A stretch of DNA of 64,000 nt from Escherichia phage pEC-M719-6WT.2: the sequence record OQ845958.1. The stretch is one strand, 5' to 3'. The notes under the pieces are model-generated. The model had not been told where the DNA came from and ran no database searches. It saw only the letters and a list, made by a program, of their open reading frames with translations. Every line of letters starts with the position of its first letter. Position 1 is the first letter of the stretch. Positions 33,860 through 51,986 of the stretch are shown here, one piece after another. A program made the position numbers and the translations under genes.

Positions 33860-33912
33860 AAAAGTAGTGTACATAAAAGATGAATAGTATATAATGATTC
33901 CGTACTGAGTTA
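33860..33912 (+). promoter_or_regulatory. early promoter cassette (A-tract, -35 TGTACA, -10 TATAAT, conserved downstream GATTCCGTACTGAGTTA)
   Basis: One of three copies of the AAAAAGTAGTGTACA...ATAATGATTCC(A/G)TACTGAGTTA cassette. Confidence 0.5.
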
Positions 33913-33940
33913 TTCACGTCCGTAAGATGAGAAAAATATC

Positions 33941-34684
33941 ATGAATATGTCAAAAGAAGAGTTTGAATTAAAAGTTTACAAACGTCGCGAGCATACCAAA
34001 ACGTCTGCAAAACGTCGTAACAAGGATTTCAATCTGTCTAGTAAGTATATTGCCAATCTTTTGAAACAAGAATTCTGTGCGTATTCTGGTGAACGTTTTG
34101 ATGAAAATTCAACTCAAGATAAAGTTTCCTTTGAACGCTTTAACAATGATATAGGTTATATTGAAGGCAATGTTATCCCTGTCAAAACTAAGTACAACGG
34201 TTTACGTGCTGATTTATCTCTTGATGAACTTAAACGTGCACAGACTCGTTTGGCGGTGCGTATTAATGGCGGTTCTAAGATGCCCAATAGTTTTAAAGTA
34301 ACTCCCGCTGACTATTATAAAATTCGCAAAATTGTTAAAAATATTAAAGATACCGAACGTGGAATCAAGAAGCGTCAAAAACATTTAAAAGAGCTTTATA
34401 AAAGTGGCGCTAAAGATACCACCCCTTCTGTGATTGCAGTCAAGGCTCGTATCCATGGACAAATGGCTTCCATCGGAACTAGTCAACGTGGGCTGAAAAT
34501 GGTTATGGGTGGTCCTGACTGGCGTCTGAAAATGAAATCATCTGACGCTGAAACGCGTTACGATATGTATGATAAAATTATTCAAGGTCTGGAGCGTTTA
34601 GATAAGTTGTCATTCATTGACCGCCTTAAACTGAAACGTGGTCTGCCTTTGAACGCGTCAATTTTTAAACTGATTAGAGGTTAA
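33941..34684 (+). CDS. Srd-like protein (by position); carries HNH-like SFERFNNDIGYIEGNV motif
   Basis: 247-aa basic ORF between mod genes and dda where T4 has srd. Confidence 0.4.
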   Translation: MNMSKEEFELKVYKRREHTKTSAKRRNKDFNLSSKYIANLLKQEFCAYSGERFDENSTQDKVSFERFNNDIGYIEGNVIPVKTKYNGLRADLSLDELKRAQTRLAVRINGGSKMPNSFKVTPADYYKIRKIVKNIKDTERGIKKRQKHLKELYKSGAKDTTPSVIAVKARIHGQMASIGTSQRGLKMVMGGPDWRLKMKSSDAETRYDMYDKIIQGLERLDKLSFIDRLKLKRGLPLNASIFKLIRG

Positions 34685-34685
34685 T

Positions 34686-34985
34686 GTGATGTACTACGCA
34701 TATGTGCTGGTCCACAAAGATAAAGATGGTTTTGAACACCCATTGGAGTATGATGGAAAGGTTACCTTATACACCACAAAAGTGGGCGCAGAATATGAAC
34801 TTGCCAACTATTCATATACTACAAGCCGCTATTTACGCATGGGACGTATTGAAACAGTATGCACACCTAGAAAATGGTGGTTTGATAAGTGGGAAACAAA
34901 AACTGTTTTTCCTACTGAAGAACACGCACGAGAATTGAAATTAATTTTAGATACTTTATATGTTAAGCGAGTAAAATTGGCATGA
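34686..34985 (+). CDS. hypothetical protein (dda.1 position)
   Basis: 99-aa ORF overlapping dda start. Confidence 0.45.
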   Translation: MMYYAYVLVHKDKDGFEHPLEYDGKVTLYTTKVGAEYELANYSYTTSRYLRMGRIETVCTPRKWWFDKWETKTVFPTEEHARELKLILDTLYVKRVKLA

Positions 34986-36310
34986 TTAAATTTGAAGACT
35001 TGAACACAGGACAAAAAGAAGCTTTTGATTATATTACTGAAGCTATTCAGCGACGTTCAGGGGAATGTATCACTCTGAATGGTCCAGCTGGCACAGGTAA
35101 GACCACTCTGACAAAATTTGTCATTGACCACTTAGTGCGTAATGGAGTTATGGGAATTGTGCTTGCTGCACCAACTCACCAGGCGAAAAAAGTTTTATCT
35201 AAATTGTCTGGTCAAACAGCGAATACAATCCATAGTATCTTGAAGATTAACCCAACGACATATGAAGACCAAAACGTTTTTGAACAGCGCGAAATGCCTG
35301 ACATGTCAAAATGCAATGTTCTGGTTTGTGATGAAGCAAGTATGTATGACGGGTCTCTGTTTAAGATTATTCTTAACTCTGTTCCTGAATGGTGCACTAT
35401 TCTTGGAATTGGTGATATGCACCAGCTGCAGCCGGTTGACCCAGGAAGCACACAGCAAAAGATAAGCCCGTTCTTTACGCATCCTAAGTTCAAACAGATT
35501 CATCTGACTGAGGTCATGCGAAGCAATGCTCCTATCATTGAAGTGGCGACAGAAATTCGCAATGGCGGCTGGTTTCGCGACTGTATGTATGAAGGCCATG
35601 GTGTGCAAGGTTTCACCTCACAAACCGCTTTAAAGGATTTCATGGTAAACTATTTCAGTATTGTAAAAGATGCTGATATGTTGATGGAAAACAGGATGTA
35701 TGCATACACGAATAAATCAGTTGAAAAACTGAACAATATTATTCGTCGCAAGCTCTATGAAACGGATAAAGCATTTTTACCGTATGAAGTCCTGGTTATG
35801 CAAGAGCCGCACATGAAAGAGTTGGAATTTGAAGGTAAGAAATTCAGCGAAACCATTTTTAATAATGGTCAGTTGGTTCGCATCAAGGATTGCAAATACA
35901 CTTCCACCATTCTCCGTTGTAAAGGCGAATCGCACCAGTTAGTGATTAATTACTGGGACCTGGAAGTTGAGTCAATTGATGAAGATGAAGAATATCAGGT
36001 TGACCGCATCAAAGTTTTACCAGAAGACCAGCAACCAAAATTCCAGGCATATCTGGCGAAAGTTGCTGACACATACAAACAGATGAAAGCCGCTGGTAAA
36101 CGTCCAGAGTGGAAAGACTTCTGGAAAGCGCGCAGGACCTTCTTGAAAGTCCGTGCTCTTCCGGTCAGTACAATCCACAAGGCCCAAGGCGTTTCAGTGG
36201 ACAAAGCATTCATCTATACTCCATGCATCCATATGGCCGAAGCTTCATTAGCGAGCCAGTTGGCTTATGTAGGAATCACACGAGCGAGGTACGACGCATA
36301 TTATGTATAA
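34982..36310 (+). CDS. dda: DNA helicase Dda (SF1B)
   Basis: 442 aa; Walker A GPAGTGKTT, DEASM; strong match to remembered T4 Dda. Confidence 0.95.
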   Translation: MIKFEDLNTGQKEAFDYITEAIQRRSGECITLNGPAGTGKTTLTKFVIDHLVRNGVMGIVLAAPTHQAKKVLSKLSGQTANTIHSILKINPTTYEDQNVFEQREMPDMSKCNVLVCDEASMYDGSLFKIILNSVPEWCTILGIGDMHQLQPVDPGSTQQKISPFFTHPKFKQIHLTEVMRSNAPIIEVATEIRNGGWFRDCMYEGHGVQGFTSQTALKDFMVNYFSIVKDADMLMENRMYAYTNKSVEKLNNIIRRKLYETDKAFLPYEVLVMQEPHMKELEFEGKKFSETIFNNGQLVRIKDCKYTSTILRCKGESHQLVINYWDLEVESIDEDEEYQVDRIKVLPEDQQPKFQAYLAKVADTYKQMKAAGKRPEWKDFWKARRTFLKVRALPVSTIHKAQGVSVDKAFIYTPCIHMAEASLASQLAYVGITRARYDAYYV

Positions 36311-36542
36311 AGTACATAAAGAAGATTTAGATAATCTTATCTATGGTATTCAGGACGCGGTTGAATTTTTCGAAGATAATCCGACTATCGTCGTGCAGGG
36401 TAATTACGTTTTGCTGGAACTGAATCTTATTCGGAAACGTATGGCCGCGATTGAATATTTTAACAATGAAGAGCCAGGGATTTTTATCTCCGACTATGTT
36501 GCTGGTGAAATTCAAAAATTAAAAGAGATGTGCGATGATTGA
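36303..36542 (+). CDS. hypothetical protein
   Basis: 79-aa ORF coupled to dexA. Confidence 0.45.
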   Translation: MYKVHKEDLDNLIYGIQDAVEFFEDNPTIVVQGNYVLLELNLIRKRMAAIEYFNNEEPGIFISDYVAGEIQKLKEMCDD

Positions 36543-37218
36543 TGCTATTATTGACTTTGAAACTCTGGGAAACGGCTCGAAGGGAGCCGTTATTGACCTG
36601 GCTCTGATTACATTCGAATCTGACCCTGCTATTGTGGAATCATTCGAAACCCTGGTTAATCGCGGCAAACGTATCAAGTTTAGCCTTGAATACCAAAAAG
36701 GTAAGCGTCTGTTCGATACAACAACCATGGGTTGGTGGAAAAAGCAATCAGCAGAAGCCCGTGTTAACTTGGCTCCTTCTGCGCAAGATGTTGATACTCT
36801 GACCGGTATCCAACAGGCAATTGATTATCTGAATGGTAATGGAATTAACAAATACGAAAGCCTTATGTGGTGTCGTGGAATGTCTTTTGACTTCCCGTTG
36901 TTTGTTGACCTTATCCGTGACCTACAGCGCAATGAGGGTATTCCCGAGCGTGAATTGAATACCTATGGCCTGGAGCCAGTTGTATTCTGGAACCAGCGAG
37001 ATATCAGGACAGCAATCGAAGCCCTATCACTCGTCCGTAAGATGTGTGAAACTCCATTACCAAAGGGGACTTTAGATGGATTTGTGGCGCATGATTCGGT
37101 GCATGACTGCGCGAAAGATATTTTGATGCTTAAGTATGCCCAGCGCTATGCTCTTGGTTTGGATGAAGTTCCTTCCGAAGAAGATGCAGACCCGTTATCT
37201 TTACCGAAAAAACGATAA
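36535..37218 (+). CDS. dexA: exonuclease A (DnaQ-like 3'-5' exonuclease)
   Basis: 227 aa, N-terminal DFET exonuclease motif, same length as T4 DexA. Confidence 0.8.
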   Translation: MIDAIIDFETLGNGSKGAVIDLALITFESDPAIVESFETLVNRGKRIKFSLEYQKGKRLFDTTTMGWWKKQSAEARVNLAPSAQDVDTLTGIQQAIDYLNGNGINKYESLMWCRGMSFDFPLFVDLIRDLQRNEGIPERELNTYGLEPVVFWNQRDIRTAIEALSLVRKMCETPLPKGTLDGFVAHDSVHDCAKDILMLKYAQRYALGLDEVPSEEDADPLSLPKKR

Positions 37219-37225
37219 AAAGTAG

Positions 37226-37254
37226 TGTACAAGGCCAATGGAAAGAGACATAAT
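37226..37254 (+). promoter_or_regulatory. early promoter (-35 TGTACA, -10 CATAAT)
   Basis: AAAAGTAGTGTACA, 17-nt spacer, CATAAT, then SD-hairpin motif. Confidence 0.45.
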
Positions 37255-37285
37255 CATCTCATCAACTACTGATGAGGATAACAAA

Positions 37286-37543
37286 ATGATTACTTCTTTT
37301 GAAATTGGCCAACAATATGAAATGTCTGCTCTTCAAGCTGCTGAAGCAGGTCTGACTGAAGCGTTTGAATGTGCATTTACAAATATTCGTGGTAAAATCT
37401 TTACTGTCAATAAAATTGCGGTATATGATAAAGAAACAGACATGAACAAAGGCATCTACTTGAACGTGTCAAACGCAAAAGGCCGTCGTGAAATTATGGT
37501 TGTACAACCTAACCAACTGGCGATGTTCAATAAGGTTACATAA
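37286..37543 (+). CDS. hypothetical protein
   Basis: 85-aa ORF from ATG after SD GAGGA. Confidence 0.45.
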   Translation: MITSFEIGQQYEMSALQAAEAGLTEAFECAFTNIRGKIFTVNKIAVYDKETDMNKGIYLNVSNAKGRREIMVVQPNQLAMFNKVT

Positions 37544-38295
37544 TGAAACCAGAATTTATTGACTTTGATGTTGTAAGCATGTATGTTCGCCCAATTAAAC
37601 CATTAAAACTTGAGAAACAAAATATGACTATTGAAATTAACAAAACTTATCAACTGATTGAACCTATTATTCAAAACGCAGCTATGGTTTCTGGGTATAA
37701 TACTCTGACTGATGCTTTAGGCGAAGGTGAATTTATTGTTGAAACTTTTGTAAAAAGTAACTGGTTTGATAAAGCATATATTTTGCATGCACGTCGCCTT
37801 GATACAAATGAAGTAGAAAAAATTATGGTTTATGAAGCTGAGATTGAACTCTTCAAAGAAGTTGAAGAAACTCCTATCAAAGTTGACAAAACCTATCAAC
37901 TTGTTGGATATGGTGATTTTGATAATACTAATGCATTGAATGCCGGTTGGCGCGTACTGAAAGGTATTTTTGGATTTGCTCCATTTACCGTTAAAACAGT
38001 TAAGTACCACAATCACCAAAGCATCTTTGAATTTACTGCGGTCAATGAATCAGGTGACAATCTTGAAGCCATCCTTTATCCGCGTGAATCTGTACTGCTG
38101 GAAGAAGTTAGCGAACTGGGTGACCCTATTGACTTGTTATGCAAACCAGTTCAAATCAAACGCCCATTTAACAGTTCCATTTGTGGTTGGGTAACAGACC
38201 AGTGGATTGAAGATGGTGTTGAACTCCTGAACGTTGTCCATGCTGGTGAATTTACTGTTGTACCACGTTCTATGGTTGTTGAAATTTTTAATTAA
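37543..38295 (+). CDS. hypothetical protein with internal repeat; C-terminal domain shared with next ORF
   Basis: 250 aa; (N/D)KTYQL repeated twice; C-terminus GWVTDQWIEDGVELLNVVHAGEFTVVP. Confidence 0.5.
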   Translation: MKPEFIDFDVVSMYVRPIKPLKLEKQNMTIEINKTYQLIEPIIQNAAMVSGYNTLTDALGEGEFIVETFVKSNWFDKAYILHARRLDTNEVEKIMVYEAEIELFKEVEETPIKVDKTYQLVGYGDFDNTNALNAGWRVLKGIFGFAPFTVKTVKYHNHQSIFEFTAVNESGDNLEAILYPRESVLLEEVSELGDPIDLLCKPVQIKRPFNSSICGWVTDQWIEDGVELLNVVHAGEFTVVPRSMVVEIFN

Positions 38296-38300
38296 ATTTA

Positions 38301-38345
38301 AAGTGTACAAACTCTTGGGGTCAGAGTATAATGACCCCACTGGAG
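38301..38345 (+). repeat. promoter/stem-loop cassette copy A
   Basis: AGTGTACAAACTCTTGGGGTCAGAGTATAATGACCCCACTGGAG; 44/45 identical to copy at 49511. Confidence 0.7.
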
Positions 38346-38374
38346 AATAAACTTATTAACCAAGAGAGAAAATT

Positions 38375-38929
38375 ATGAAAGTTGAAGCTGGTGATATTGT
38401 ACGTGTTTCTAAAGAATCTCGTTCTAAAGCTGCTGGTCGTTTTGTTGAGGTTGCGGGTCTTCGCACTAATTTAGTAGGTGGAATTAAAGAAGTTAAAGTG
38501 CGTATCATTCCTAAAAATGGTCAGACTGAAACTCAATTGGCTTATGTGCATCCTAAATTCCTGGAATCAACCGAATTTACTGGATATATCGCTCCTGTGT
38601 CTGAGGAAGTTGAATCCCATGATGGATATGTGTGCGAAAGCAATGATATCCGTGGTGTAATTGCTCAAGACGTTGAAACCATTGACCAGTCTCATGTTGG
38701 GGTTGATTTTAAATGGAAATTGGGCAAAGGTGTCTTTTTTGTTTCACCTAAACCGTTTGAATACAATTGCATGTACGGTCCGACTTATGAAACCACTAGC
38801 ATGTCTGGTTACATCACAGACCAGTGGGTTGAAGAAGGTGTCAAACTGTATAATATCGTATTCCTTGGAACCTTTAAGGTTGTTCCTGAGAGCTTTATCG
38901 TTGAGTATGCCGATATTCATTTTGCCTAA
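38375..38929 (+). CDS. hypothetical protein; C-terminal domain paralogous to 37543 ORF
   Basis: 184 aa; C-terminus GYITDQWVEEGVKLYNIVFLGTFKVVP. Confidence 0.5.
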   Translation: MKVEAGDIVRVSKESRSKAAGRFVEVAGLRTNLVGGIKEVKVRIIPKNGQTETQLAYVHPKFLESTEFTGYIAPVSEEVESHDGYVCESNDIRGVIAQDVETIDQSHVGVDFKWKLGKGVFFVSPKPFEYNCMYGPTYETTSMSGYITDQWVEEGVKLYNIVFLGTFKVVPESFIVEYADIHFA

Positions 38930-38977
38930 ATTATAAAAATGATAGGGTAATTTTGCCCTATCAATGAGGAGAATATT

Positions 38978-39202
38978 ATGTTTAATGAAGATTGTGTGAC
39001 CACTTCCCTGACTGCTGAAGAGTTTTGGGACACTGCCGAAAGTGATAAAGTGATTGTGAAGAAAAACATCAATGAATTTCTTTGCACCACTGATATCATT
39101 TATGTGTATGCAGACAAAGACGCAGAACTACCTAGCTATGCGCTGTTCCGCGAAGAATCAGAAGATGGTACAGATTTTTGGAAGGAGATTTATAATGTCT
39201 AA
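38978..39202 (+). CDS. hypothetical acidic protein
   Basis: 74-aa ORF with SD GAGGAG. Confidence 0.4.
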   Translation: MFNEDCVTTSLTAEEFWDTAESDKVIVKKNINEFLCTTDIIYVYADKDAELPSYALFREESEDGTDFWKEIYNV

Positions 39203-39566
39203 ATTTGAAACTGATAAGTGGTATTATTTTAAAGATAATGTTGCTGAAAGCAGATTCCGTTTGTTATGCACAGATAATGATAATATAGCCAATGCTATAA
39301 TCAATGGCGAGGGATTTAGACCAGTCAGAATTGAAGATGGTGATGTGTATAAAATGGAATTATCAACTGGTGAATTTGTGAGCCTATTCATAAAGGAAGA
39401 CGAATTCCGTTTCTTTGAAGAAGAAAAAGATGACGATACTGAAGATGAATGCGAAGACGCAGCTCCATCTGAGCCAAGCGAATTCCCTTTGACTAAAATC
39501 ACCATCTCTAATAACTCCGAAGCCTGGACCGTTTACCAGATGTTGAAAGCACACTTTAAGGAATAA
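39195..39566 (+). CDS. hypothetical acidic protein
   Basis: 123-aa ORF from internal ATG. Confidence 0.4.
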   Translation: MSKFETDKWYYFKDNVAESRFRLLCTDNDNIANAIINGEGFRPVRIEDGDVYKMELSTGEFVSLFIKEDEFRFFEEEKDDDTEDECEDAAPSEPSEFPLTKITISNNSEAWTVYQMLKAHFKE

Positions 39567-39567
39567 C

Positions 39568-39744
39568 ATGCCACTTTATGATTACAAATGTCAATCCAAT
39601 GACTGCGCGAAAGAATACGAAAAAATCAAGAAAATCTCTGAAAGAGATAATGATGTTTGTCCTGATTGCCATCGGCTGGCTGTTCGGTTAGTCTCGGCCC
39701 CTAAACATGTTAATGGCGGTTTTTACGACCTGCTGACTAAGTGA
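39568..39744 (+). CDS. zinc-ribbon protein (FmdB-like)
   Basis: 58 aa, YDYKCQSNDC...CPDCH paired CxxC motifs. Confidence 0.45.
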   Translation: MPLYDYKCQSNDCAKEYEKIKKISERDNDVCPDCHRLAVRLVSAPKHVNGGFYDLLTK

Positions 39745-39750
39745 GAAATT

Positions 39751-40011
39751 ATGAAATACATTAATCGTTCTATTGCAGCGCTGGTGCTGGCGGTTTCATT
39801 AGCTGGTTGTACTGATGCAGATAACGCCATTCGTGTATTAGATGCAAACGGCTATGAGCAAATCCAAATCACCGGATATAATTGGTTCTCTTGTGGTAAA
39901 GATGATTTCCAACACACAGGCTTTACGGCCGTGGGTCCAACTGGTAAGAAAGTTGAAGGAACTGTTTGTTCTGGTTTGTTGTTCAAGAATTCAACCATCC
40001 GATTTGAATGA
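39751..40011 (+). CDS. putative lipoprotein
   Basis: Signal peptide with lipobox LAGC. Confidence 0.45.
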   Translation: MKYINRSIAALVLAVSLAGCTDADNAIRVLDANGYEQIQITGYNWFSCGKDDFQHTGFTAVGPTGKKVEGTVCSGLLFKNSTIRFE

Positions 40012-40018
40012 GGATATT

Positions 40019-40420
40019 ATGTTTAAAATTGGAAAGAGTTATTGCATTAAAGATTTAGATGGCTTCCTTAAACATGTCGGTATGCCCGGTTGCATTTTGA
40101 ACCAGCAAGGAACCTCTATCATTGATTTGATTACTACCAAAGAGTTTTCAGTCACCAAGATGGAAGCAAATGTTGTGACGGAATTTAGTACTATCGATGG
40201 AACTGGATTTTCTTTCCATAGTCGTAATGGAACCGGTCTTATTTTTGGTGATGAATTTAAATATTTTGAAGAAACCCCAAAGGAATGTGATTCTGAAATA
40301 ACCGAACAGGAATCAAAAGAGGATATTGTTGTTACCGGTGGCGATGTTATTATTACGGTTAAAACTGAAGCCGGGCGCCTACAAGCTATTAAAATGTTAG
40401 AGCAGCTTCGATTCAAATAA
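40019..40420 (+). CDS. hypothetical protein
   Basis: 133-aa ORF with SD GAGGA. Confidence 0.45.
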   Translation: MFKIGKSYCIKDLDGFLKHVGMPGCILNQQGTSIIDLITTKEFSVTKMEANVVTEFSTIDGTGFSFHSRNGTGLIFGDEFKYFEETPKECDSEITEQESKEDIVVTGGDVIITVKTEAGRLQAIKMLEQLRFK

Positions 40421-40439
40421 AAGGCCTTCGGGCCTTTTT
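40421..40439 (+). terminator. intrinsic terminator AAGGCC-ttcg-GGCCTT + TTTTT
   Basis: UUCG hairpin plus T-run. Confidence 0.6.
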
Positions 40440-40463
40440 GCTTTAAAATATGTGACTTATAAT
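40439..40463 (+). promoter_or_regulatory. MotA-dependent middle promoter (TGCTTTA box, 12 nt, TATAAT)
   Basis: Canonical MotA box upstream of gp39. Confidence 0.5.
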
Positions 40464-40485
40464 ACCTCCATACACAAGAGGAAAG

Positions 40486-42318: not shown

Positions 42319-42321
42319 ATA
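42314..42321 (+). promoter_or_regulatory. late promoter TATAAATA overlapping gp39 stop
   Basis: Exact consensus, then palindrome ACGGGAGAAT/ATTCTCCCGT and SD AGGAGAAG. Confidence 0.45.
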
Positions 42322-42360
42322 GATACGGGAGAATATTCTCCCGTCTTATAGGAGAAGTCC

Positions 42361-42513
42361 ATGAAAAAGTGGTGGGTTACGTTGTCAAATGGCGAATACG
42401 GTTATCTGTGGGCCGATACTAAACCTCTGTTTGCATCCTTTGTCACCATTATGTGCGAGACTTGGGATGGCGAATACTATACCGCATATGGGCAAGTCTA
42501 TAAAGTTGAGTAG
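42361..42513 (+). CDS. small Trp/Tyr-rich protein, late-promoter driven
   Basis: 50-aa ORF flanked by TATAAATA and intrinsic terminator. Confidence 0.35.
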   Translation: MKKWWVTLSNGEYGYLWADTKPLFASFVTIMCETWDGEYYTAYGQVYKVE

Positions 42514-42516
42514 CCA

Positions 42517-42539
42517 AAAGGACCTTCGGGTCCTTTTTT
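42517..42539 (+). terminator. intrinsic terminator AAAGGACC-ttcg-GGTCCTTT + T-run
   Basis: 8-bp stem, UUCG loop, TTTTTT. Confidence 0.65.
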
Positions 42540-42589
42540 ATTATGTACAAGCCACAAAAATTGCGTTAAGATATCCTTGAGGTGAACAT

Positions 42590-43058: not shown

Positions 43059-43065
43059 GAAAAAC

Positions 43066-45300: not shown

Positions 45301-45301
45301 T

Positions 45302-46273
45302 ATGTTTAATATCAAATGTATGTCTAAAGCCGAACAAGCTGATGTGGTCCAGATGTATTCAACGGGCAATTATACCCAGCCTGAATTGGCAGAATATTTT
45401 GCTGTGTCCGTTGACACCATTCGCCGCGTTTTGAAAAATGATAAAGAATCAAAATTAGCTAAAACCATTTCTGCATCACTGAAAGCAGCTGTTGGTGTGG
45501 CGATTAATGCTCCGGTGACAGTAACGGTTGAAGTCCCGGTTGCTGATACAATCGGCGGTAGCCGCCCGGAAATCGTATGGAACGCATCAAGCAAATTCGT
45601 TTCCATCACCGAAGGTCGCACGGTCTGGAACGCAACAAAAGACCATAAACACTTTAATGATATTATTCAGGCACTCAAAGAATCTCGTTTTGACGATGCT
45701 ATCGAGTTTATCTCAATCAAAGCTGCGGTGCAAAAATATGTGAAAGGTGATGTGCGTATTGAAGGTGGTAGTCTGTTCTATCAGGGAATTGAACTGCGCT
45801 CTGGTTTGGTTACTCGTATCATTGATTCAATGCAAAATGGTGAAGATTTTGAATTCTATCTGCCGTTCCTTGAGAATCTCCTTGAGAACCCGAGTGAAAA
45901 AGCAGTACAGCGTTTGTTTGACTTCCTGGTTGCTAACGATATCGAAATCACCGAAGATGGTCATTTCATCGCCTGGAAAATGGTTCGTTCAACCTACAAA
46001 GATTGTCACTCAAACACATTCGACAACAGCCCTGGCCAATATGTTAAAATGCCACGCTCTCGTGTGAATGACAATGACGAACAAACCTGTTCAACTGGGC
46101 TGCACGTTTGTTCTAAAGGTTATATCGGAAGTGGCTTTGGTCATGGTGATGGGCGCATCGTATCCTGTAAAGTTCACCCGCGCGATGTTGTAAGTATCCC
46201 GGTGGATTATAATGATTCAAAAATGAGGGTTTGTGGTTACCTGGTTCTTGATGATGTAACTGAACAATTCTAA
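45302..46273 (+). CDS. rIIB: rIIB protein
   Basis: 323-aa ORF immediately after rIIA. Confidence 0.82.
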   Translation: MFNIKCMSKAEQADVVQMYSTGNYTQPELAEYFAVSVDTIRRVLKNDKESKLAKTISASLKAAVGVAINAPVTVTVEVPVADTIGGSRPEIVWNASSKFVSITEGRTVWNATKDHKHFNDIIQALKESRFDDAIEFISIKAAVQKYVKGDVRIEGGSLFYQGIELRSGLVTRIIDSMQNGEDFEFYLPFLENLLENPSEKAVQRLFDFLVANDIEITEDGHFIAWKMVRSTYKDCHSNTFDNSPGQYVKMPRSRVNDNDEQTCSTGLHVCSKGYIGSGFGHGDGRIVSCKVHPRDVVSIPVDYNDSKMRVCGYLVLDDVTEQF

Positions 46274-46306
46274 ATTAATCGGGGCTTCGGCCCCTAATGA
46301 GGCTTT

Positions 46307-46504
46307 ATGTTAGGTTTCCAAGCACGTGTAGTTGAAGAATATGACCAGCTGGTTTTGAAAATCAATGCTCTTGAAGAGTTTATTAAGGGTGGTGTTTTTG
46401 AAACTCTTGATATCCGTCAACAAGGTCTTTTGATTGCCCAACTGGATGCGATGGGCGCATATGCTCATGTACTGGCAATCCGTATCTCTTATTTTGGTGA
46501 ATAA
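46307..46504 (+). CDS. hypothetical protein
   Basis: 65-aa ORF after GGGGC-ttcg-GCCCC hairpin. Confidence 0.4.
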   Translation: MLGFQARVVEEYDQLVLKINALEEFIKGGVFETLDIRQQGLLIAQLDAMGAYAHVLAIRISYFGE

Positions 46505-46507
46505 ATT

Positions 46508-46828
46508 ATGATTAACTATATGAACGTTGGCGATGAATCTATTAACGAAATCCGGTTGCATGGTAATCATGTTGCGGATATTGTTTATTGTGTGGATTGT
46601 CATTATGCTTCTACAAAGTCAACTGGGCGGTTATATGCGAGGGACATCATTCTTGCAACGAAAGAAGAACTTCGTAGTCTGGACCATTCTACACTAGCCG
46701 AAAGTGCCAGAATTTATTATGGCGTCGTTCATGTGGACAAAGTTTATATTGGCAGCGATTATCAAGAGCAAGCTGAGCAAAATTCTTTAGATATTGTCGA
46801 AAAATCCGATATGTATTTTAAAGGATGA
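46508..46828 (+). CDS. hypothetical protein
   Basis: 106-aa ORF. Confidence 0.4.
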   Translation: MINYMNVGDESINEIRLHGNHVADIVYCVDCHYASTKSTGRLYARDIILATKEELRSLDHSTLAESARIYYGVVHVDKVYIGSDYQEQAEQNSLDIVEKSDMYFKG

Positions 46829-46832
46829 CATT

Positions 46833-47426
46833 ATGATTCAGAAGAGTAAAACATGGGAGCATCTGAAAAAGATGCCCTCCTTTCTTTATACAAAAGAAGA
46901 CTTAACCCCCGAATCCCTGCAAAAGATTGTAGACACTGCCAGGTATTCATTGCGTAAAGACCCTGGTCAGGACCGTGAGCAAGTCATGCAAAGATGTATG
47001 GTGGCTACAATGGCTGAACAAGCTATTGCTAAATGGACCTCCGGTTTTTTATGTGGTGGCGATGAAGATTACGATAATCCTTATTCCTTTGCATTTGATG
47101 TAGTTTCGAAGGAAGGGGTAAGAATCGAAGTCAAGACCCATCAGTCTGGTTCCAAATGGATATCCGTGCACACTGGCAGCCATGGCGATTACCCACACGG
47201 TTACGGAGTTAATCTTGGCCCTTTTATGCAGCACAAGCTTGCTGACCTTATGATTATGTTTAATGTAAAAGAGACTATCAAAGGTTATAGATTTAAACCA
47301 AAATTCCTTGCTGGGCCGGGTGCTTTCGTTCCTGAGTCTGGTCTTGTGCAGAAGTCACAAGGGGATGGCTGGTACCTCCGTTCTTGTTCAGAAGAAAAAT
47401 TTCCCTATCACCGGTTTACAAGCTGA
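46833..47426 (+). CDS. putative PD-(D/E)xK-like nuclease (DenB position)
   Basis: 198 aa; AFDVV...RIEVKT resembles D...ExK motif; lies between rIIB and ndd where T4 has denB. Confidence 0.35.
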   Translation: MIQKSKTWEHLKKMPSFLYTKEDLTPESLQKIVDTARYSLRKDPGQDREQVMQRCMVATMAEQAIAKWTSGFLCGGDEDYDNPYSFAFDVVSKEGVRIEVKTHQSGSKWISVHTGSHGDYPHGYGVNLGPFMQHKLADLMIMFNVKETIKGYRFKPKFLAGPGAFVPESGLVQKSQGDGWYLRSCSEEKFPYHRFTS

Positions 47427-47473
47427 ACCAACCATGTAATAATGTCCTCACACCAACAAATGAGGACATTATC

Positions 47474-47749
47474 ATGGAACACGTTACTACTAATAACATC
47501 AAACAAATTCTTATTCAAGCACTCAAAAACAACAACATCAATTTTCCAACCCATGAAATTTTTGATGTAGTATTCAACGAAGTCCAGGGACAAGTTGCCT
47601 ATTATGACGTTATCATTTATCTTTCAGAATTTGAAGTCTACCACCTGACTGAAATCGCTTTCTATCTCTATCGTGGAACAGCAGATTTTACTGGGGTCGT
47701 GAATGCAGTTGGTGCATATAAAGAAGTTAAAGAACAAATGCACAATTAA
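47474..47749 (+). CDS. hypothetical protein
   Basis: 91-aa ORF preceded by 9-bp hairpin ATGTCCTCA/TGAGGACAT. Confidence 0.4.
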   Translation: MEHVTTNNIKQILIQALKNNNINFPTHEIFDVVFNEVQGQVAYYDVIIYLSEFEVYHLTEIAFYLYRGTADFTGVVNAVGAYKEVKEQMHN

Positions 47750-47752
47750 TCA

Positions 47753-47806
47753 AAAAGTAGTGTACATCAGTATGGAGTCTATGTATAATGATTCCATACT
47801 GAGTTA
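47753..47806 (+). promoter_or_regulatory. early promoter cassette (-35 TGTACA, -10 TATAAT, hairpin CAGTATGGA/TCCATACTG)
   Basis: Copy of the AAAAAGTAGTGTACA...ATAATGATTCCATACTGAGTTA cassette; 17-nt spacer. Confidence 0.5.
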
Positions 47807-47991
47807 CCAAATACTGGAGAATAAAATGAAACCTGCTCAATATGCAATGACTTTATACCTTGAAGTTAATGGCGATATTACTGAATTTTTTAAATTAATG
47901 CAACAGCGTGGAAAAAGTTTTGCAGTTACTGAGCGTCAATTTTACGCATGTCGCAAAAATACATACAATCGTTATGCATGAGGAAAATAAA

Positions 47992-48258
47992 ATGGATATT
48001 AAATTATACTACGCCAAACACAAAGTTACAGGTATGGTTGTTGCTGCTATGTATGATGCATCAGGTGATGGTGATGATGTTACCACAGAATTGTCTCTTT
48101 CTGATTGTAAATTTCTTCGTCCATTGATTGCATCAAAGGAAGATTTAAAAAAGCTTATTGATGGAAAACTGGATAATGTTGATGGCATAGATATTCTTTA
48201 TGACCTTCGCACTGCATTGTACAGAGGATTGATTGAAATCAAAGAGGTGATATTTTGA
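47992..48258 (+). CDS. hypothetical acidic protein
   Basis: 89-aa ORF. Confidence 0.4.
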   Translation: MDIKLYYAKHKVTGMVVAAMYDASGDGDDVTTELSLSDCKFLRPLIASKEDLKKLIDGKLDNVDGIDILYDLRTALYRGLIEIKEVIF

Positions 48259-48349
48259 GCAGCAAAACCTGGTGCCTTATCTGGATGCTGTGTATCCCAG
48301 TAATTTGCGTTTGTTTTAGTTTATTATTAATGAAACTTGCATAAAAGAG

Positions 48350-48377
48350 TGTACATCTCCAGTGGTTGTAGTATAAT
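48350..48377 (+). promoter_or_regulatory. early promoter (-35 TGTACA, -10 TATAAT) within hairpin ATCTCCAGT/ACTGGAGAT
   Basis: 9-bp stem pairs the post -35 sequence with the SD region. Confidence 0.45.
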
Positions 48378-48530
48378 GAACCTATCAACTACTGGAGATG
48401 ATTATGAAAAAGTTACTTAAAGCCATTTGGAACATGTTTGTACTGTTTGTTGTCCTGAGCATTTTCCCAATTGTTTTTATGATTGACCATGTGCGTGTTT
48501 ACTTTAACTATTTCTTTTGAGGATAATATT

Positions 48531-48737
48531 ATGAATTACAATTCACAATTTCAGAAATCCAATCGTCGCTTTGACTTTATGTTCAAGTTTATTGTGGCGA
48601 TGATTATCCTGATTTTCATTGGTGCCATTGCAATGATTGGTTTCCAGCTCTGGATTGCTGCTGAAGTGTTCACACAAATCCAGGATAATGGTTTGAAGTC
48701 TGTTGTTGATGTAATTTGGAATGGAGCTAAGCAATGA
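48531..48737 (+). CDS. small membrane protein
   Basis: 68 aa with one TM helix; SD GAGGA. Confidence 0.4.
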   Translation: MNYNSQFQKSNRRFDFMFKFIVAMIILIFIGAIAMIGFQLWIAAEVFTQIQDNGLKSVVDVIWNGAKQ

Positions 48738-48979
48738 AACTTTTTAAAGACATTGCAGTTGGTGAAAAATTTGTCCTTGGTAATGGTCAACAACTGATTC
48801 GCATTTCGCCTTTAATGGATAACAGCGAGCGCCCTGTGCGCACTGAAAACTGTTTGGATTATCCTTTTTATCAGAAGCGTTTTGCAATTGAAAATAATAC
48901 TGAGTGCTTCACGGTTGATGAACTGATGGAATCATCAGAAGAAGTTGACTTGTGGGATGGCGCGGTAGACCCTGAATAA
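48734..48979 (+). CDS. hypothetical protein
   Basis: 81-aa ORF, coupled. Confidence 0.4.
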   Translation: MKLFKDIAVGEKFVLGNGQQLIRISPLMDNSERPVRTENCLDYPFYQKRFAIENNTECFTVDELMESSEEVDLWDGAVDPE

Positions 48980-49168
48980 ACTGAGGAAAATATTATGGAC
49001 AATAGAATTTATAAAGTAAAGCTTCATGGTAAAGTGATTAAAACTCTTAGTTTTAATGCGTATATTAGCGCAAATTGTGCGCGGGATATCCTCATTGAGG
49101 AAGGTTACAGCAAGTACATTCAGATTGAAGAAGTTCTTTAAAAAGGTTTACTTACTGGGGAAAATATT

Positions 49169-49513
49169 ATGTCTAAAGTATTTTTTGGTAATGCTAAAGT
49201 TATGTTCTTTAAACAGATTAGCCTTCAGGAGGCGTCGGAGGCATTCAATCAAAGTATGATTCCTGACGTACATCCAAAAGTTATGACGAGTGCTGATTTC
49301 GTTTTCGTCCAAGACCCGGAAACAGGCTTTTATCGGTTCATTAAATTTCGTATGAGTATGGAGCCAGGTTATCATAGTGCTTACTACGTGAGTTATGAAA
49401 ATGTTATCAAAGAATTGCGTAATACCTATAAGCGCGCTTTGACCCCGCTGAATAAGGTGTATAATGCTTCCTTTTATACGAGCGGATTTATTTTAGAACA
49501 GCTTCAAAAATAG
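49169..49513 (+). CDS. hypothetical protein
   Basis: 114-aa ORF. Confidence 0.4.
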   Translation: MSKVFFGNAKVMFFKQISLQEASEAFNQSMIPDVHPKVMTSADFVFVQDPETGFYRFIKFRMSMEPGYHSAYYVSYENVIKELRNTYKRALTPLNKVYNASFYTSGFILEQLQK

Positions 49514-49555
49514 TGTACAAACTCTTGGGGTCAGAGTATAATGACCCCACTGGAG
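49511..49555 (+). repeat. promoter/stem-loop cassette copy B
   Basis: TAGTGTACAAACTCTTGGGGTCAGAGTATAATGACCCCACTGGAG; drives ndd. Confidence 0.7.
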
Positions 49556-49586
49556 CAAAAAACTTTAACTTACTGAGGAAATTAAT

Positions 49587-50036
49587 ATGACTACTTACAT
49601 GACCCGTCGTGACGTACTGAATGCTGGTGCTACCACTGTTGCTTATATCCATAATGGTAATTATGTTGCCGGTCGCCCAACTAAAGAAGCTATCACTCAA
49701 CCAGGTTTTTATTTCGTGGTTAAAGGTGAAGGTGAATCGCGTATTGTTGCCGCACGTTTTTATGTTGGTAACCAACGTTCACAACAAGGGTTTGACACTG
49801 TATTAAGTCACATCCGCAAACAGCGTTCTCAACTGTCTCGCACAATGGCGAACAATGGGGTTATCTATGAAGTCCTGTTTGTCCCAGTTTCTAAAATGAA
49901 ACCTCTGACAACTGGTTATGGTAAAGGTCAAATTGCAATGGCGTTCACTCGCTCGCATAGTTCTGATTGCCAGACCCTTTCAGAAATGAATCGCATGCTT
50001 GCTGATAACTTTAAATTCATTCTGCAGAGCTATTAA
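49587..50036 (+). CDS. ndd: nucleoid disruption protein Ndd
   Basis: 149 aa; [23 protein letters not shown]...MKPLTTG.GKGQ...[12 protein letters not shown] matches remembered T4 Ndd. Confidence 0.85.
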
Positions 50037-50037
50037 T

Positions 50038-50118
50038 ATGAGTAATTTCCATAATGAACACGTGATGCAATGGCATCGTCATAATCTGAAATTAACTGGC
50101 GTCTTTGGACGCCCTTGA
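50038..50118 (+). CDS. stp: Stp peptide (26 aa)
   Basis: [26 protein letters not shown] closely resembles remembered T4 Stp; between ndd and ac-like ORF as in T4. Confidence 0.65.
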
Positions 50119-50125
50119 GGAAAAT

Positions 50126-50278
50126 ATGAAATTTGTTCATGGCGTAGCTTTTTTCTGTTGGTCATTTTTATTTGTTGGAACATTAATAACTGGAGAAACT
50201 TCAGTATTTCTGCAGTCAACAGCTCAAGGTGTATTAGCGACTTTAACACTATTTAAATTATTGGATAAAAATGATTAA
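50126..50278 (+). CDS. small membrane protein (Ac-like by position)
   Basis: 50-aa hydrophobic ORF with SD GAGGA, between stp and gp52. Confidence 0.4.
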   Translation: MKFVHGVAFFCWSFLFVGTLITGETSVFLQSTAQGVLATLTLFKLLDKND

Positions 50279-50419
50279 GAAAATCTTGGGCTACTCGTTA
50301 GCCCTTGCTACTTTGTTGGTGGCGCTGTATTACGGAGTTGTGTTTGCATTAGTGCAGGTTGTGCTTTTTATTTCTGATGCTATAATGGCAGTACATTCGT
50401 TAATTTGGTAAGGTGATAT

Positions 50420-51799
50420 ATGTCTGACGTTTTAAGTATGATGTCCAAACAGTTCAGTGATTCCATGGGGACCCTTAACCCACGCAGTCTAAAAGACATT
50501 ATTGATGTGGAAGCATTGTCATATGCTATCTACACTGTGGAAGGTCGTGCCATCCCAAACATGATTGATGGTTTTAAACCAGTTCACAGATTTGTTATGG
50601 CGAGAGCATTAGACCTGGCACGTGGTGATAAGAATAAATTCCATAAGGTTGCATCCATTGCAGGTGGCGTAGCTGATTATGGTTATCACCATGGTGAAGC
50701 ATCAGCTGAAGAAGCAACTTCTGGGTTGGTCGCAACATATAAAAATGAATATCCCATGTTTGATGGGCAAGGTAACTTTGGTTCCAGAATGGTGCCAGAA
50801 GCATCATCGGCTCGTTATGTATTCGCAAGGGTTTCAAAGAACTTTTACAACTTGTTTAAGGATACAGAATATGCTCCGGTCCATCCTGATGAAGAACATA
50901 AGCCTCCTGCTTTTTATCTTCCTGTTATTCCTACTGTATTACTTAACGCCACTTCTGGGATTGCTGTTGGCTTTGCTACTGATATCCTTCCTCATTCGTT
51001 CCAGGACGTCAAGGAAGCTGTTAAAGCTATCGTGGAAGGTCGTGAGCCGGTTGCTCCGAAAGTAAAATATCCAGAATTCCGTGGTAAAGTTGTTGAGCTG
51101 GAAGAGCCTGGTAAGTATGAGCTTCACGGCACATACAAAATGACCTCAAGGACTCAAATGGAAATTACTGAAATCCCGGTCCAATGGAACCTGGAAAAAT
51201 ATACAAGTAAAATCCTGGACCCACTGGAAGAGAAAGGTTTTATCACCTGGAAAGATAACTGCGGCGAGCATGGTTTTGGGTTTAAGATTAAATTCCGCAA
51301 AGAATACAAGTTGGATGGCACTGAAGAAGAGAATCATGAGAAAATCATGAAAGACTTTGGTCTGATTGAGAAACTCTCCCAGAACTTAACTGTGCTTAAT
51401 CACAAAGGCAAATTAGCTGAATACACCAACACGCTTGACCTGATTCGCGATTTCGTTGATGTCCGTAAGACTTATGTTCAAGTGCGAATTGACAGTAAGA
51501 TTAAAGAAACTGAAGCGGCATTTAAACTGGCCCGGGCAAAAGTCTTCTTTATTAAAGAAGTGATTGATGGTAAGGTTGTTATCCAGGGGAAACCTCGTAA
51601 GAAGTTGATTGAGGAGCTCCAGGCGAGTGAAATATATGGCGATTATGCAGAGAAGTTAGTGGCGATGAACATCTACCATATGACCTCTGATGAAGCTAAG
51701 AAGCTTGCGGACGAAGCTAAGGCTAAGAAAGCTGAGCATGAGTACTGGAAGACAACTGACGTTAAAACTGAGTACCTTAATGATTTGGAGGCTCTATGA
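50420..51799 (+). CDS. 52: DNA topoisomerase II medium subunit gp52 (GyrA-like)
   Basis: 459 aa with GyrA-type N-terminal region; position after ndd/stp. Confidence 0.92.
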   Translation: MSDVLSMMSKQFSDSMGTLNPRSLKDIIDVEALSYAIYTVEGRAIPNMIDGFKPVHRFVMARALDLARGDKNKFHKVASIAGGVADYGYHHGEASAEEATSGLVATYKNEYPMFDGQGNFGSRMVPEASSARYVFARVSKNFYNLFKDTEYAPVHPDEEHKPPAFYLPVIPTVLLNATSGIAVGFATDILPHSFQDVKEAVKAIVEGREPVAPKVKYPEFRGKVVELEEPGKYELHGTYKMTSRTQMEITEIPVQWNLEKYTSKILDPLEEKGFITWKDNCGEHGFGFKIKFRKEYKLDGTEEENHEKIMKDFGLIEKLSQNLTVLNHKGKLAEYTNTLDLIRDFVDVRKTYVQVRIDSKIKETEAAFKLARAKVFFIKEVIDGKVVIQGKPRKKLIEELQASEIYGDYAEKLVAMNIYHMTSDEAKKLADEAKAKKAEHEYWKTTDVKTEYLNDLEAL

Positions 51800-51893
51800 G
51801 TTTTGGAGTTGAGTTTGCATTGCTTTGTATTTTCGCGGCAATCGCAGGTGTGATTGTTGGTATGTTTATTGGTAATAAGATAGATAAAGACTA

Positions 51894-51916
51894 GGACCCT
51901 TCGGGGTCCTTTTTTA
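51894..51916 (+). terminator. intrinsic terminator GGACCC-ttcg-GGGTCC + TTTTTTT
   Basis: UUCG hairpin plus 7 T after gp52 and a 32-aa overlapping membrane peptide ORF. Confidence 0.65.
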
Positions 51917-51932
51917 TTTTAAAATATTTTAA

Positions 51933-51986
51933 AAAAGTAGTGTACATGACCCTTGACCTGATGCATAATGATTCCATACTGAGTTA
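51933..51986 (+). promoter_or_regulatory. early promoter cassette (-35 TGTACA, -10 CATAAT, conserved GATTCCATACTGAGTTA)
   Basis: Third copy of the AAAAAGTAGTGTACA cassette; 17-nt spacer. Confidence 0.5.

Follow-up and report, generated by a model that had tools for sequence, protein, structure and literature searches.

Predicted T4-type early promoter-leader cassettes with interchangeable start modules in an Escherichia phage

The window analysed here, a stretch of 64,000 nucleotides from Escherichia phage pEC-M719-6WT.2 (OQ845958.1), represents the early region of a T4-like myovirus from the VR7/SP18 group, and its gene order is syntenic with the T4 order modA-srd-dda...rIIB-denB-ndd-52-motA. 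Three related sites (33859-33912, 47752-47806, and 51932-51986; copies 1 to 3) respectively precede srd, an ORF in the ndd region, and an ORF before motA, all in the orientation of early transcription (Table 1). A preliminary description of this DNA had located the three sites, each of which exists but begins one base earlier than was given there (at 33859, 47752, and 51932). The spacers of copies 1, 2, and 3 measure 16, 17, and 17 nt, and the -10 hexamers are TATAAT, TATAAT, and CATAAT. The motif TAATGATTCC[AG]TACTGAGTTA has exactly three matches in the window, all on the + strand, against none in 100 shuffles. AAAAAG lies ahead of the -35 in every copy. A fourth exact match to the upstream block AAAAAGTAGTGTACA lies at 37217 and is followed by a different downstream module (ATCAAC).

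Table 1. Positions of the cassette elements, neighbouring genes, and structures in the window
Feature	Position	Strand	Details
Copy 1 A-tract and -35 block	33859-33873	+	AAAAAGTAGTGTACA, exact match, promoter scans; TGTACA at 33868-33873
Copy 1 -10	33890-33895	+	TATAAT, 16-nt spacer; promoter scans
Copy 1 box	33896-33912	+	Discriminator GATTCC and GTACTGAGTTA; predicted +1 G at 33902
srd (anti-sigma factor), served by copy 1	33941-34684	+	phrog_1400, E 1.9e-89
Fourth exact -35 block with alternative start module	37217-37266	+	CATAAT at 37249-37254; ATCAAC at 37261-37266
Copy 2 A-tract and -35 block	47752-47766	+	TGTACA at 47761-47766
Copy 2 hairpin spanning the -10	47767-47802	+	5' arm 47767-47779 (spacer), loop 47780-47789, 3' arm 47790-47802 (discriminator and box)
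Copy 2 box	47790-47806	+	GATTCC and ATACTGAGTTA; predicted +1 A at 47796
Copy 2 Shine-Dalgarno region	47816-47826	+	GGAGAATAAAA, exact match to RegB/S1 consensus GGAGRAYARAA (consensus from PMC3014915)
51-aa orphan ORF (ndd region), served by copy 2	47826-47981	+	
Intrinsic terminator-like hairpin, directly upstream of copy 3	51893-51916	+	AGGACC(CTTCGG)GGTCCT and T-run; hairpin 51893-51910
Copy 3 A-tract and -35 block	51932-51946	+	TGTACA at 51941-51946
Copy 3 -10	51964-51969	+	CATAAT, 17-nt spacer
Copy 3 box	51970-51986	+	GATTCC and ATACTGAGTTA; predicted +1 A at 51976
Copy 3 Shine-Dalgarno region	52009-52019	+	GGAGAATAAAA, RegB/S1 consensus match
71-aa ORF upstream of motA, served by copy 3	52019-52234	+	phrog_17275

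The three sites are predicted to be T4-type sigma-70 early promoters, comprising an A-tract, a GTGTACA -35, a spacer of 16-17 nt, and a (T/C)ATAAT -10. The reading as early promoters, already advanced in the preliminary description, is supported by the match to the T4-type consensus, by the intergenic position upstream of early genes and the orientation with early transcription, and by the synteny with T4, whose GenBank record itself carries no promoter features. In the complete genome PP693301, which is 97% identical to the window, there are 34 strong promoter matches, all on the early strand and each upstream of a Shine-Dalgarno sequence (SD) and ATG. Over 17 independent loci, the A-rich tract carries 1.4-1.5 bits at -44 to -42 and at -40, and 0.8 at -41. 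What had been described as a conserved downstream box is the discriminator GATTCC followed by the first 11 predicted transcribed bases, (A/G)TACTGAGTTA, the +1 being placed from its distance to the -10 (about 7 nt) and from the A/G variation at that base. The predicted +1 purine is the sole variable base of the box; it varies in two separate loci, and in the VR25 and VR26 orthologues of copy 1 it is A.

The preliminary description spoke of a three-copy family, which proved too narrow: motif searches in relatives gave about 12 copies per genome and placed the module in four genera. In PP693301, 12 copies are linked to promoters, every one on the early strand, and four of these form a tandem series before hypothetical ORFs at 47.5-49 kb; by BLAST the relatives have 10-14 matches each. 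The module is also present in Gualtarvirus (Morganella and Providencia phages), in a Dhakavirus, and in one Tequatrovirus. Morganella phage MP1 has five tandem copies, annotated in its record as promoters, while Providencia phage PSTRCR_121 and Tequatrovirus ECp13 have one each; among the 68 records matched by a 33-nt BLAST query there is no T4 record, and ECp13 is the only confirmed Tequatrovirus. None of the 17 independent loci departs from the common sequence at +2 to +11, and the -35 and -10 hexamers vary. The first 11 predicted transcribed bases are thus conserved more strictly than the -35 and -10 themselves, and come in only two discrete forms, which was unexpected. Between the window and its 97%-identical relative, the three cassettes differ only in the spacer, in the -35 flank, or after +12, and nowhere from -12 to +12. 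Mimicry of a host element was rejected, the 50-nt consensus cassette having no match in 5,426 complete E. coli genomes.

Comparison of relatives revealed that the start modules are exchanged, both at orthologous promoters and ahead of one and the same gene. Among 16 cassettes retrieved by their promoter half alone, 14 continue with [AG]TACTGAGTTA (class C, the box) and two with ATCAAC (class A), with no intermediates. At the srd promoter, JS98 has ATCAAC where the window has the box, and the two sequences are homologous again immediately downstream of the module. An identical promoter half is joined to class C in VR26 and to class A in VR25 and PP693301, and the same ORF (90-100% amino-acid identity) can stand behind a cassette of either class in different phages. 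VR26 also has a chimera in which the spacer of one cassette is joined to the leader and gene of a second. VR20 lacks the ORF that follows copy 2, and VR26 has a different ORF in its place; the change is bounded by the cassette ATG and the following SD. Insertions, deletions, and replacements of genes between relatives have their ends at conserved cassette blocks, as described for PeSL cassettes. The ORFs that follow box cassettes in MP1 and in the VR7 group are homologues (42-51% identity). Deep vertical linkage of cassette to downstream gene was considered and dropped, since sampling anchored on orthologues showed the cassette before one ORF family to be replaced even between near-identical phages.

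We consider it probable that these elements are T4-type early promoter-leader cassettes with interchangeable start modules, and that their conserved blocks act as PeSL-type swap points. Each cassette, consisting of an A-rich UP-like tract, GTGTACA, a free 16-17 nt spacer, (T/C)ATAAT, the pyrimidine-rich GATTCC, and a purine start, would be read by host E-sigma70 immediately after infection. The box would lie inside the RNA polymerase footprint and also form the 5' end (5'-AUACUGAGUUA) of an unstructured A/C-rich leader, which would lead into the SD region GGAGAAUAAAA, also a candidate consensus RegB/S1 cleavage site. Among the approximately 35 early promoters of the lineage, the box is one of a few discrete start modules, alongside class A and a class B with a hairpin across the -10. 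The -35 block, the stretch from -10 to +12, and the SD-ATG would then serve as portable homology patches at which promoter halves, leaders, and small accessory ORFs are swapped within and between T4-like phages, amounting to PeSL-type modular shuffling.

Within such a cassette, the box would presumably act in initiation or promoter escape. Its start region (TATAAT GATTCC ATACTGAG) resembles that of N25 (TATAAT AGATTC ATAAATTTGAGAG). It is not known to fit the NAD-capping promoter consensus or to contain a -10-like sigma-pause element, and its likeness to rrn boxA would be limited to UUAACAA, being lost in UUACCAA variants. The initial transcribed sequence sets promoter output, and at strong phage promoters such as T5 N25 the functional promoter takes in the bases between +1 and about +20, which influence both escape and productive yield (Hsu & Han 2025, PMC12464699; Heyduk & Heyduk 2018, PMC5961368); an equivalent effect is predicted here. 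The known effects, however, are degenerate and driven by composition, and do not predict an invariant 11-nt word. The invariance of +2 to +11, tighter than such effects predict, hints at either a more sequence-specific reader or homogenisation by recombination.

The box had also been suggested to be a structure at the 5' end of the transcript, which folding does not bear out: RNAs from the predicted +1 fold no better than shuffles (z -0.23, +0.07, and +1.30). An Rfam scan of 33-53 kb gave no match at the boxes, its only match being a sub-threshold one to Atu_C8 on the terminator (51837-51926). Pairing with rRNA as a translational enhancer was likewise discarded, since the best complementarity to 16S is 8 nt and is equalled by 10% of shuffled queries.

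A different structure is present in copy 2, where, as the preliminary description had noticed, the spacer pairs with the box. The stem of 13 bp, including one G·U, has a folding energy of -23.9 kcal/mol (z -5.8, 0/200 shuffles as good); its 10 Watson-Crick bp are reached by 0/2000 spacer shuffles, and the TATAAT (47784-47789) lies inside the loop. Folding gave no comparable spacer-box hairpin in copies 1 and 3. Because the 5' arm is untranscribed spacer, the hairpin forms only in read-through RNA or single-stranded DNA. Hairpins of this type recur independently with compensatory and G·U changes: four of the 17 independent loci have spacer stems of at least 10 Watson-Crick bp (0/2000 shuffles each), three further loci have stems of 6-7 bp (p 0.03-0.04), and compensatory GG/CC versus GGG/CCC pairs together with three G·U substitutions keep the pairing. 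RNAalifold on the mixed cassettes was uninformative for covariation, the stems lying in different registers, and per-sequence folds were used. Hairpins spanning the -10 (-15 to -23 kcal/mol) are also found in other cassette classes of distant T4-like phages, and PeSL stem-loops overlapping the -10 have been described, one of which was shown to attenuate transcription (PMC2839356). All this is consistent with the structure being the functional unit, the box being kept mainly as the 3' arm of a -10-enclosing stem-loop that could act as an attenuator, a processing site, a 3' stabiliser in read-through RNA, or a DNA cruciform. We regard this as unlikely, as the majority of box copies, copies 1 and 3 among them, lack a complementary spacer yet have an equally invariant box. 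Further, a functional hairpin should co-vary in both arms, whereas here the spacer arm alone varies; this indicates a separate constraint on the box, to which the spacer adapts. In the cassette reading, where a short intergenic space needs a stem-loop, the spacer, as the only free segment, would have evolved to pair with the fixed box, and the -10-enclosing hairpin, found only in read-through transcripts, would probably be an attenuator or a 3' stabiliser.

Another possibility is that the box is the recognition site of a trans-acting phage or host factor. On DNA it could be an operator that overlaps +1 and serves, for example, early-promoter shut-off; at the RNA 5' end it could control stability or translation and define a co-regulated group among the early transcripts. 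In 17 loci from four genera the 11 bases do not vary, unlike the -35, the -10, and the adjoining leader, the module has only two discrete states without intermediates, and the box, at -6 to +12, occupies a classical operator position. Further, reviews state that neither AsiA nor ModA accounts for the shut-off of early promoters (PMC2988021; PMC3014915). This explanation too seems to us to have a low probability: the box is asymmetric, no box was found outside promoters in these genomes, and no candidate factor was found. The free exchange of class C and class A before a given gene among near-identical phages speaks against gene-specific regulation. Inverted box copies differ in arm boundaries and spacing (9-18 nt) and carry compensatory or G·U changes, so that nucleic-acid pairing fits better than protein half-sites, and a palindromic operator with the box as half-site is unlikely. 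The more specific proposal that the module (5'-AUACUGAGUUA or GATTCC-ATACTGAGTTA) is the target of a sequence-specific factor at +1 on DNA or at the RNA 5' end, marking out certain early promoters or transcripts of several T4-like genera to be controlled together, possibly by rapid shut-off, with ATCAAC as a second class, appears less likely again. Least probable is that the box has no function of its own and reflects recent spread with continuing gene conversion (concerted evolution and horizontal transfer among co-infecting T4-like phages): cassettes do recombine and move, as in the VR26 chimera, modules are swapped at orthologous sites, and cassettes lie at indel borders, but conversion should also homogenise the 17-nt spacer, yet two genomes of 97% identity disagree at 5/17 of its positions, the identical core is flanked in MP1 and in the VR7 group by discriminators and leaders specific to each lineage, and no decayed copies were found at up to two mismatches.

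If the box serves promoter mechanics, it would represent a naturally optimised initial transcribed sequence for E. coli RNA polymerase, useful in promoter design; if it has a specific reader, it would open a way into the mechanism that shuts off T4-type early promoters. In annotating genomes of this phage group, one can use the cassette to call early promoters and its conserved blocks to locate sites of accessory-gene swapping.

The cassettes share with T4-type early promoters (Nolan 2006, PMC1524935; Hinton 2010, PMC2988021) the A-rich tract at -40 to -44, G-36, a (T/G)TTAC-type -35, a 17±1 spacer, the TAtAAT -10, the preference for C at -3 to -1 (PMC1524935), the location upstream of early genes and new ORFs, and, here as a prediction, reading by host E-sigma70. 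Additional consensus regions beyond the -35 and -10 have been described for T4-like early promoters (PMC2988021). The -35 differs, being GTGTACA here and GTTTAC there, and the T4 srd promoter, unlike the srd promoter here, lacks the box. The published logos stop near the start site, without an invariant +1 to +11 module; we found no such module described for T4-type early promoters or PeSL cassettes, the kind of element being otherwise known. At the other end of the cassette, the SD region resembles the RegB/S1 sites in T4 early SD regions (Uzan & Miller 2010, PMC3014915), GGAGAATAAAA fitting GG*AGRAYARAA at 11/11 positions, and a gene in the genome of the 97%-identical relative is annotated RegB. 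The match is outside the box, at the 3' end of the cassette, and copy 1 has no GGAG.

The cassettes also resemble the PeSL cassettes of RB49/phi1, PST/T4, and nt-1/KVP40 (Arbiol 2010, PMC2839356; Comeau 2014, PMC4122927), which combine an early promoter, a stem-loop, and SD-ATG; mini-circles formed when adjacent cassettes recombine are a further trait of the PeSL type. A PeSL-type SD and start codon (GGAGAATAAAATG) ends copies 2 and 3 and most genome-wide copies, while the leader of copy 1 differs. PeSL stem-loops may overlap the -10 or -35 or sit upstream; here, copy 2 has its stem-loop across the -10 and copy 3 an upstream terminator hairpin, and copy 1 has none (z -0.26). Having neither stem-loop nor GGAG, copy 1 is only a partial PeSL-type cassette. 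In both systems copies are numerous and concentrated among small ORFans, and close relatives differ by insertions, deletions, or replacements that end at them. The cassettes described here differ from those of the PeSL papers in lineage (the VR7/SP18 group), in having a stem-loop in only about one third of box cassettes, and in their fixed initial transcribed sequence, of which those papers make no mention. Comparison across distant T4-like phages, in which compensated hairpins enclosing the -10 recur, adds support to the PeSL stem-loop idea.

The window contains three copies of the 21-nt word TAATGATTCC[AG]TACTGAGTTA, all on the + strand, against none in 100 dinucleotide-preserving shuffles. 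The three promoter cassettes named in the preliminary description (copies 1, 2, and 3) are present, but each starts one base earlier than it gave (see table). An exact match to the upstream word AAAAAGTAGTGTACA also occurs at a fourth site, 37217, overlooked earlier; here CATAAT comes next, and the sequence beyond it, ATCAACTACTGATGAGG, differs from that of the other three. A 5-kb piece of the window shares 99% identity with Yersinia phage vB_YenM_P8 (PP693301) and 84-100% with T4-like coliphages of the VR7/VR20/VR25/SP18 group, with other T4-like phages reaching only 60-80%; the window as a whole is ~97% identical to PP693301. Its genes are arranged as in the early region of T4 (modB, modA, srd, dda, dexA, motB, ... 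39, rIIA, rIIB, denB, ndd, ac, 52, motA, asiA), all on the + strand, and all three sites are intergenic. Each has an A-tract, GTGTACA, a spacer of 16 or 17 nt, and (T/C)ATAAT. Early promoters of T4-like phages have an A-rich stretch at -40 to -44, a GTTTAC-type -35, and TAtAAT as -10, and they favour C from -3 to -1 (PMC1524935). The cassette elements fit this consensus and lie between genes in a T4-syntenic early region; the three sites, as first proposed, are thus T4-type early promoters as judged from sequence. Scanning the assembled complete genome of PP693301 for at least 5/6 matches per hexamer followed by SD-ATG gave 34 predicted promoter sites, all on the early strand. The first ~135 residues of the Srd protein also match PHROG families annotated as HNH endonuclease or endonuclease VII (E 2e-15 to 2e-4).

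Coordinates of the cassettes, genes, and hairpins discussed in the text
Feature	Location	Strand	Remark
Box cassette, copy 1	window 33859-33912	+	5' of srd
Box cassette, copy 2	window 47752-47806	+	5' of 51-aa ORF in ndd region
Box cassette, copy 3	window 51932-51986	+	5' of 71-aa ORF preceding motA
srd	window 33941-34684	+	
71-aa ORF before motA	window 52019-52234		phrog_17275
Class A cassettes (examples)	window 8326, 21780, 26041, 26858, 33124, 37217, 48341		
Class B cassettes	window 38302-38351 and 49512-49561		
T4 motB promoter	T4 L002 about 7214	-	class B cassette with compensated arms
Watson-Crick stems of at least 10 bp, spacer to box	window 47761; VR25 orthologue of PP693301 67437; MP1 61351; MP1 59826		13 bp at MP1 59826
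Terminator-like hairpin, C(UUCG)G tetraloop	window 42516-42537		T-run after it
Terminator-like hairpin, CUUCGG loop	window 51893-51910		T-run after it; directly 5' of copy 3

A family of three copies, as originally described, is too small. Motif search with CCATACTGAGTTA (at most two mismatches) placed it after a promoter at 12 positions in PP693301 alone, all remaining matches lying within coding sequence without promoter context, and relatives have 10-14 BLAST places each. In Morganella phage MP1 (Gualtarvirus) the module stands behind five promoters in tandem, which the depositors annotated as MEME-derived promoters, and it occurs behind one promoter each in Providencia phage PSTRCR_121 (Gualtarvirus), Dhakavirus IME341, and Tequatrovirus ECp13. 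BLAST matched 68 records, with T4 and RB69 absent among the 60 matches listed; the module is missing from the T4 srd promoter, and a search of 5,426 complete genomes of E. coli gave no match to the cassette. Its distribution covers the VR7/SP18 group and Gualtarvirus, with sporadic occurrences elsewhere. The full-cassette consensus is aaaaaGT(G/T)TACA-N16/17-(C/T)ATAAT-GATTCC-A-TACTGAGTTA-(A/C)CAAAyAAAACACTGGAGAATAAAATG. The 71-aa ORF before motA corresponds in sequence to the C-terminal portion of larger proteins (143-147 aa) with a weak resemblance to DUF2786 at the N-terminus; these too are preceded by box cassettes, in PP693301 (48409) and MP1 (61859, 60986). Many product names in the PP693301 record are clearly misassigned (thioredoxin, molybdenum ABC transporter, and naphthalene dioxygenase, for example, on small early ORFs), and the record places a spurious ORF, the minus-strand ORF013, over a box cassette.

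The conserved segment, or box, starts immediately after the -10, and its first six bases, GATTCC, form the discriminator. The seventh, the sole variable position of the motif as first defined, is a purine at a +1-like distance from the -10: this predicted +1 is G at srd in the window and A in VR25 and VR26, and at the 47752 site it is A in the window and G in VR25. By this numbering, TACTGAGTTA would occupy +2 to +11 in the predicted transcript. The position of the box is constant relative to the -10 and variable relative to the start codon, with leaders of 30 to 55 nt that diverge after about +12. When the three cassettes are compared with those of PP693301, all differences fall in the spacer (5/17 positions in copy 3), beside the -35, or past +12, and none from -12 to +12. 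Across 17 independent loci (PP693301, window, MP1) the hexamers vary (-35 TGTACA/TTTACA/TATACA/TGTACT; -10 TATAAT/CATAAT/TATTAT) and +2 to +11 are invariant. Searching with the promoter half (GTGTACA-N17-19-ATAATGATTCC), which samples the downstream sequence without bias, recovered 16 distinct T4-like cassettes; [AG]TACTGAGTTA came next in 14 and ATCAAC in the other two, with no intermediates. Per-position information values over box loci are biased by the way the copies were collected; the mismatch search of PP693301, the MP1 tandem copies, the window-versus-relative differences, and the promoter-half sample are selection-independent.

Early promoters of this lineage sort into classes by the sequence after the -10. 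Class A, the largest, starts ATCAAC and has ~15 members in PP693301; class B has an inverted repeat around the -10 (GGGGTCAgagTATAATGACCCC); and class C carries the box. The class A start, ATCAAC(TACTG...), often forms a small 5'-terminal hairpin (AUCA-ACUAC-UGAU) immediately 5' of the SD. The classes substitute for each other at orthologous sites. At srd, the promoter reads ...ATCAAC-TAATCGTCCGTAAGATG in JS98 versus ...ATACTGAGTT-TAATCGTCCGTAAGATG in VR25, and in the window homology with JS98 and T4 restarts at CGTCCGTAAGATG, immediately past the module. One promoter half, the same down to its spacer (aagtcctttgagctaagg), is class C in VR26 and class A in VR25 and PP693301, the downstream gene being different in each. 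In a sample of 50 loci anchored on one ORF family (MKLQRESIK...), the protein (90-100% identity) lies behind class C in PP693301, VR20, IME341, and ECp13, and behind class A in VR26, VR25, and JS98. VR26 also has a chimeric cassette, with the spacer of one cassette and the leader and gene of its neighbour. Homologues of the MKLQR ORF occur in phage contigs of non-T4 size (~49 kb; IMG/VR loci L076 and L083-L108) behind a different promoter, with ATCGAAACGA as predicted transcript start; the family moves between phage types.

We propose that the box is probably the discriminator and initial-transcribed module of a PeSL-like early promoter cassette (PeSL, promoter-early stem-loop). It would be selected as a piece of the promoter and 5' leader, and would spread via recombination at conserved blocks. 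The initial transcribed sequence is known to alter promoter output strongly (PMC5961368, PMC12464699), and the consensus of T4 early promoters extends past the classical elements (PMC2988021). The weak point of this proposal is that the box is more invariant than such effects predict. A factor reading the box sequence-specifically, on DNA or RNA, draws some appeal from the shut-off of early promoters, which reviews stress is unexplained (PMC2988021, PMC3014915). However, classes A and C swap freely before the same gene, which argues against gene-specific control. Such a reader is unlikely.

The hairpin described for copy 2 was confirmed. Its arms are the spacer (47767-47779) and a stretch of discriminator and box (47790-47802), which form a 13-bp stem, one pair being G·U, around a loop that contains TATAAT (-23.9 kcal/mol, z = -5.8). 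Folding copies 1 and 3 gave no comparable spacer-box hairpin. Watson-Crick stems of at least 10 bp join spacer and box at 4 of the 17 independent box loci, unmatched at each locus by any of 2000 spacer shuffles, and three further box loci have 6-7 bp stems (p 0.03-0.04). The arms show compensation, GG/CC accompanying discriminator TCC and GGG/CCC discriminator CCC, and G·U substitutions keep the pairing in VR26, in VR25 (+1 A-to-G opposite U), and in one class B cassette; such changes are better explained by RNA pairing than by protein half-sites. The -10-spanning hairpins of class B covary (T4 motB GGGACC/GGTCCC, window GGGGTCA/TGACCCC, PP693301 GGGAGC/GCTCCC; PP693301 also has a GGGAGC/GTTCCC version), and class A cassettes 5' of the MKLQR ORF in distant T4-like phages have -10-spanning hairpins of -15 to -23 kcal/mol. 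It nevertheless seems doubtful that the hairpin is the primary function of the box, as many box copies lack a pairing partner. Because the 5' arm lies upstream of the predicted +1, the hairpin would be limited to read-through transcripts or single-stranded DNA. The intergenic space may be nearly filled by constrained sequence, with the spacer as the one free segment; a stem-loop would then have to be built from the spacer, and since the spacer adapts to a fixed box, only its arm varies. Among class C copies of the window, PP693301, and MP1, spacer-box pairing occurs mostly with TATAAT, and copies without pairing nearly all have CATAAT, often preceded by TG.

Least probable is pure homogenisation of a functionless box, given that the spacers between conserved blocks are hypervariable and the flanks lineage-specific around an identical core. 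The box as a transcript 5' structure, as had been suggested, is not supported, since RNAs from the predicted +1 fold like shuffles (z -0.23, +0.07, +1.30). Rfam gave zero family matches, and cassette complementarity to 16S and 23S rRNA is no better than chance. The cassette 3' end, GGAGAATAAAA, agrees at 11/11 positions with GG*AGRAYARAA, the consensus for strong RegB/S1 cleavage (PMC3014915), and the PP693301 record has an annotated RegB gene. Based on the unstructured leader and this match, the cassette appears to supply a strong start early in infection and an open leader, and to carry its own means of early inactivation, this last point by analogy with T4.

T4-type early promoters and PeSL cassettes are already known. 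The invariant start module, the two-state alternative, and their distribution are not described in the PeSL papers, the five-genome promoter survey (PMC1524935), or the MP1 genome paper, in which promoters are merely counted (n=12); most subscription journals fell outside this search, and a prior description may exist. PeSL cassettes are composites of early promoter, stem-loop, and SD-ATG; they lie beside ORFans, and modular shuffling occurs through them (PMC2839356, PMC4122927). Indels ending at such cassettes have been reported, and the window cassettes behave in the same way. VR20 lacks window 47829-47988, the 51-aa ORF 3' of copy 2, and VR26 has another ORF in its place; homology is lost at the cassette ATG and regained at the SD of the next gene. 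A second example is window 48979-49170 versus PP693301 118903-118990, an ORF/cassette replacement at SD-ATG microhomology; the window segment holds a 48-aa ORF between the repeats (G)GAGGAAAATATTATG and GGGGAAAATATTATG, where PP693301 has a class B cassette. Stem-loops over the -10, like that of copy 2, are a common subclass of PeSL, and one of that kind was shown to attenuate transcription (PMC2839356).
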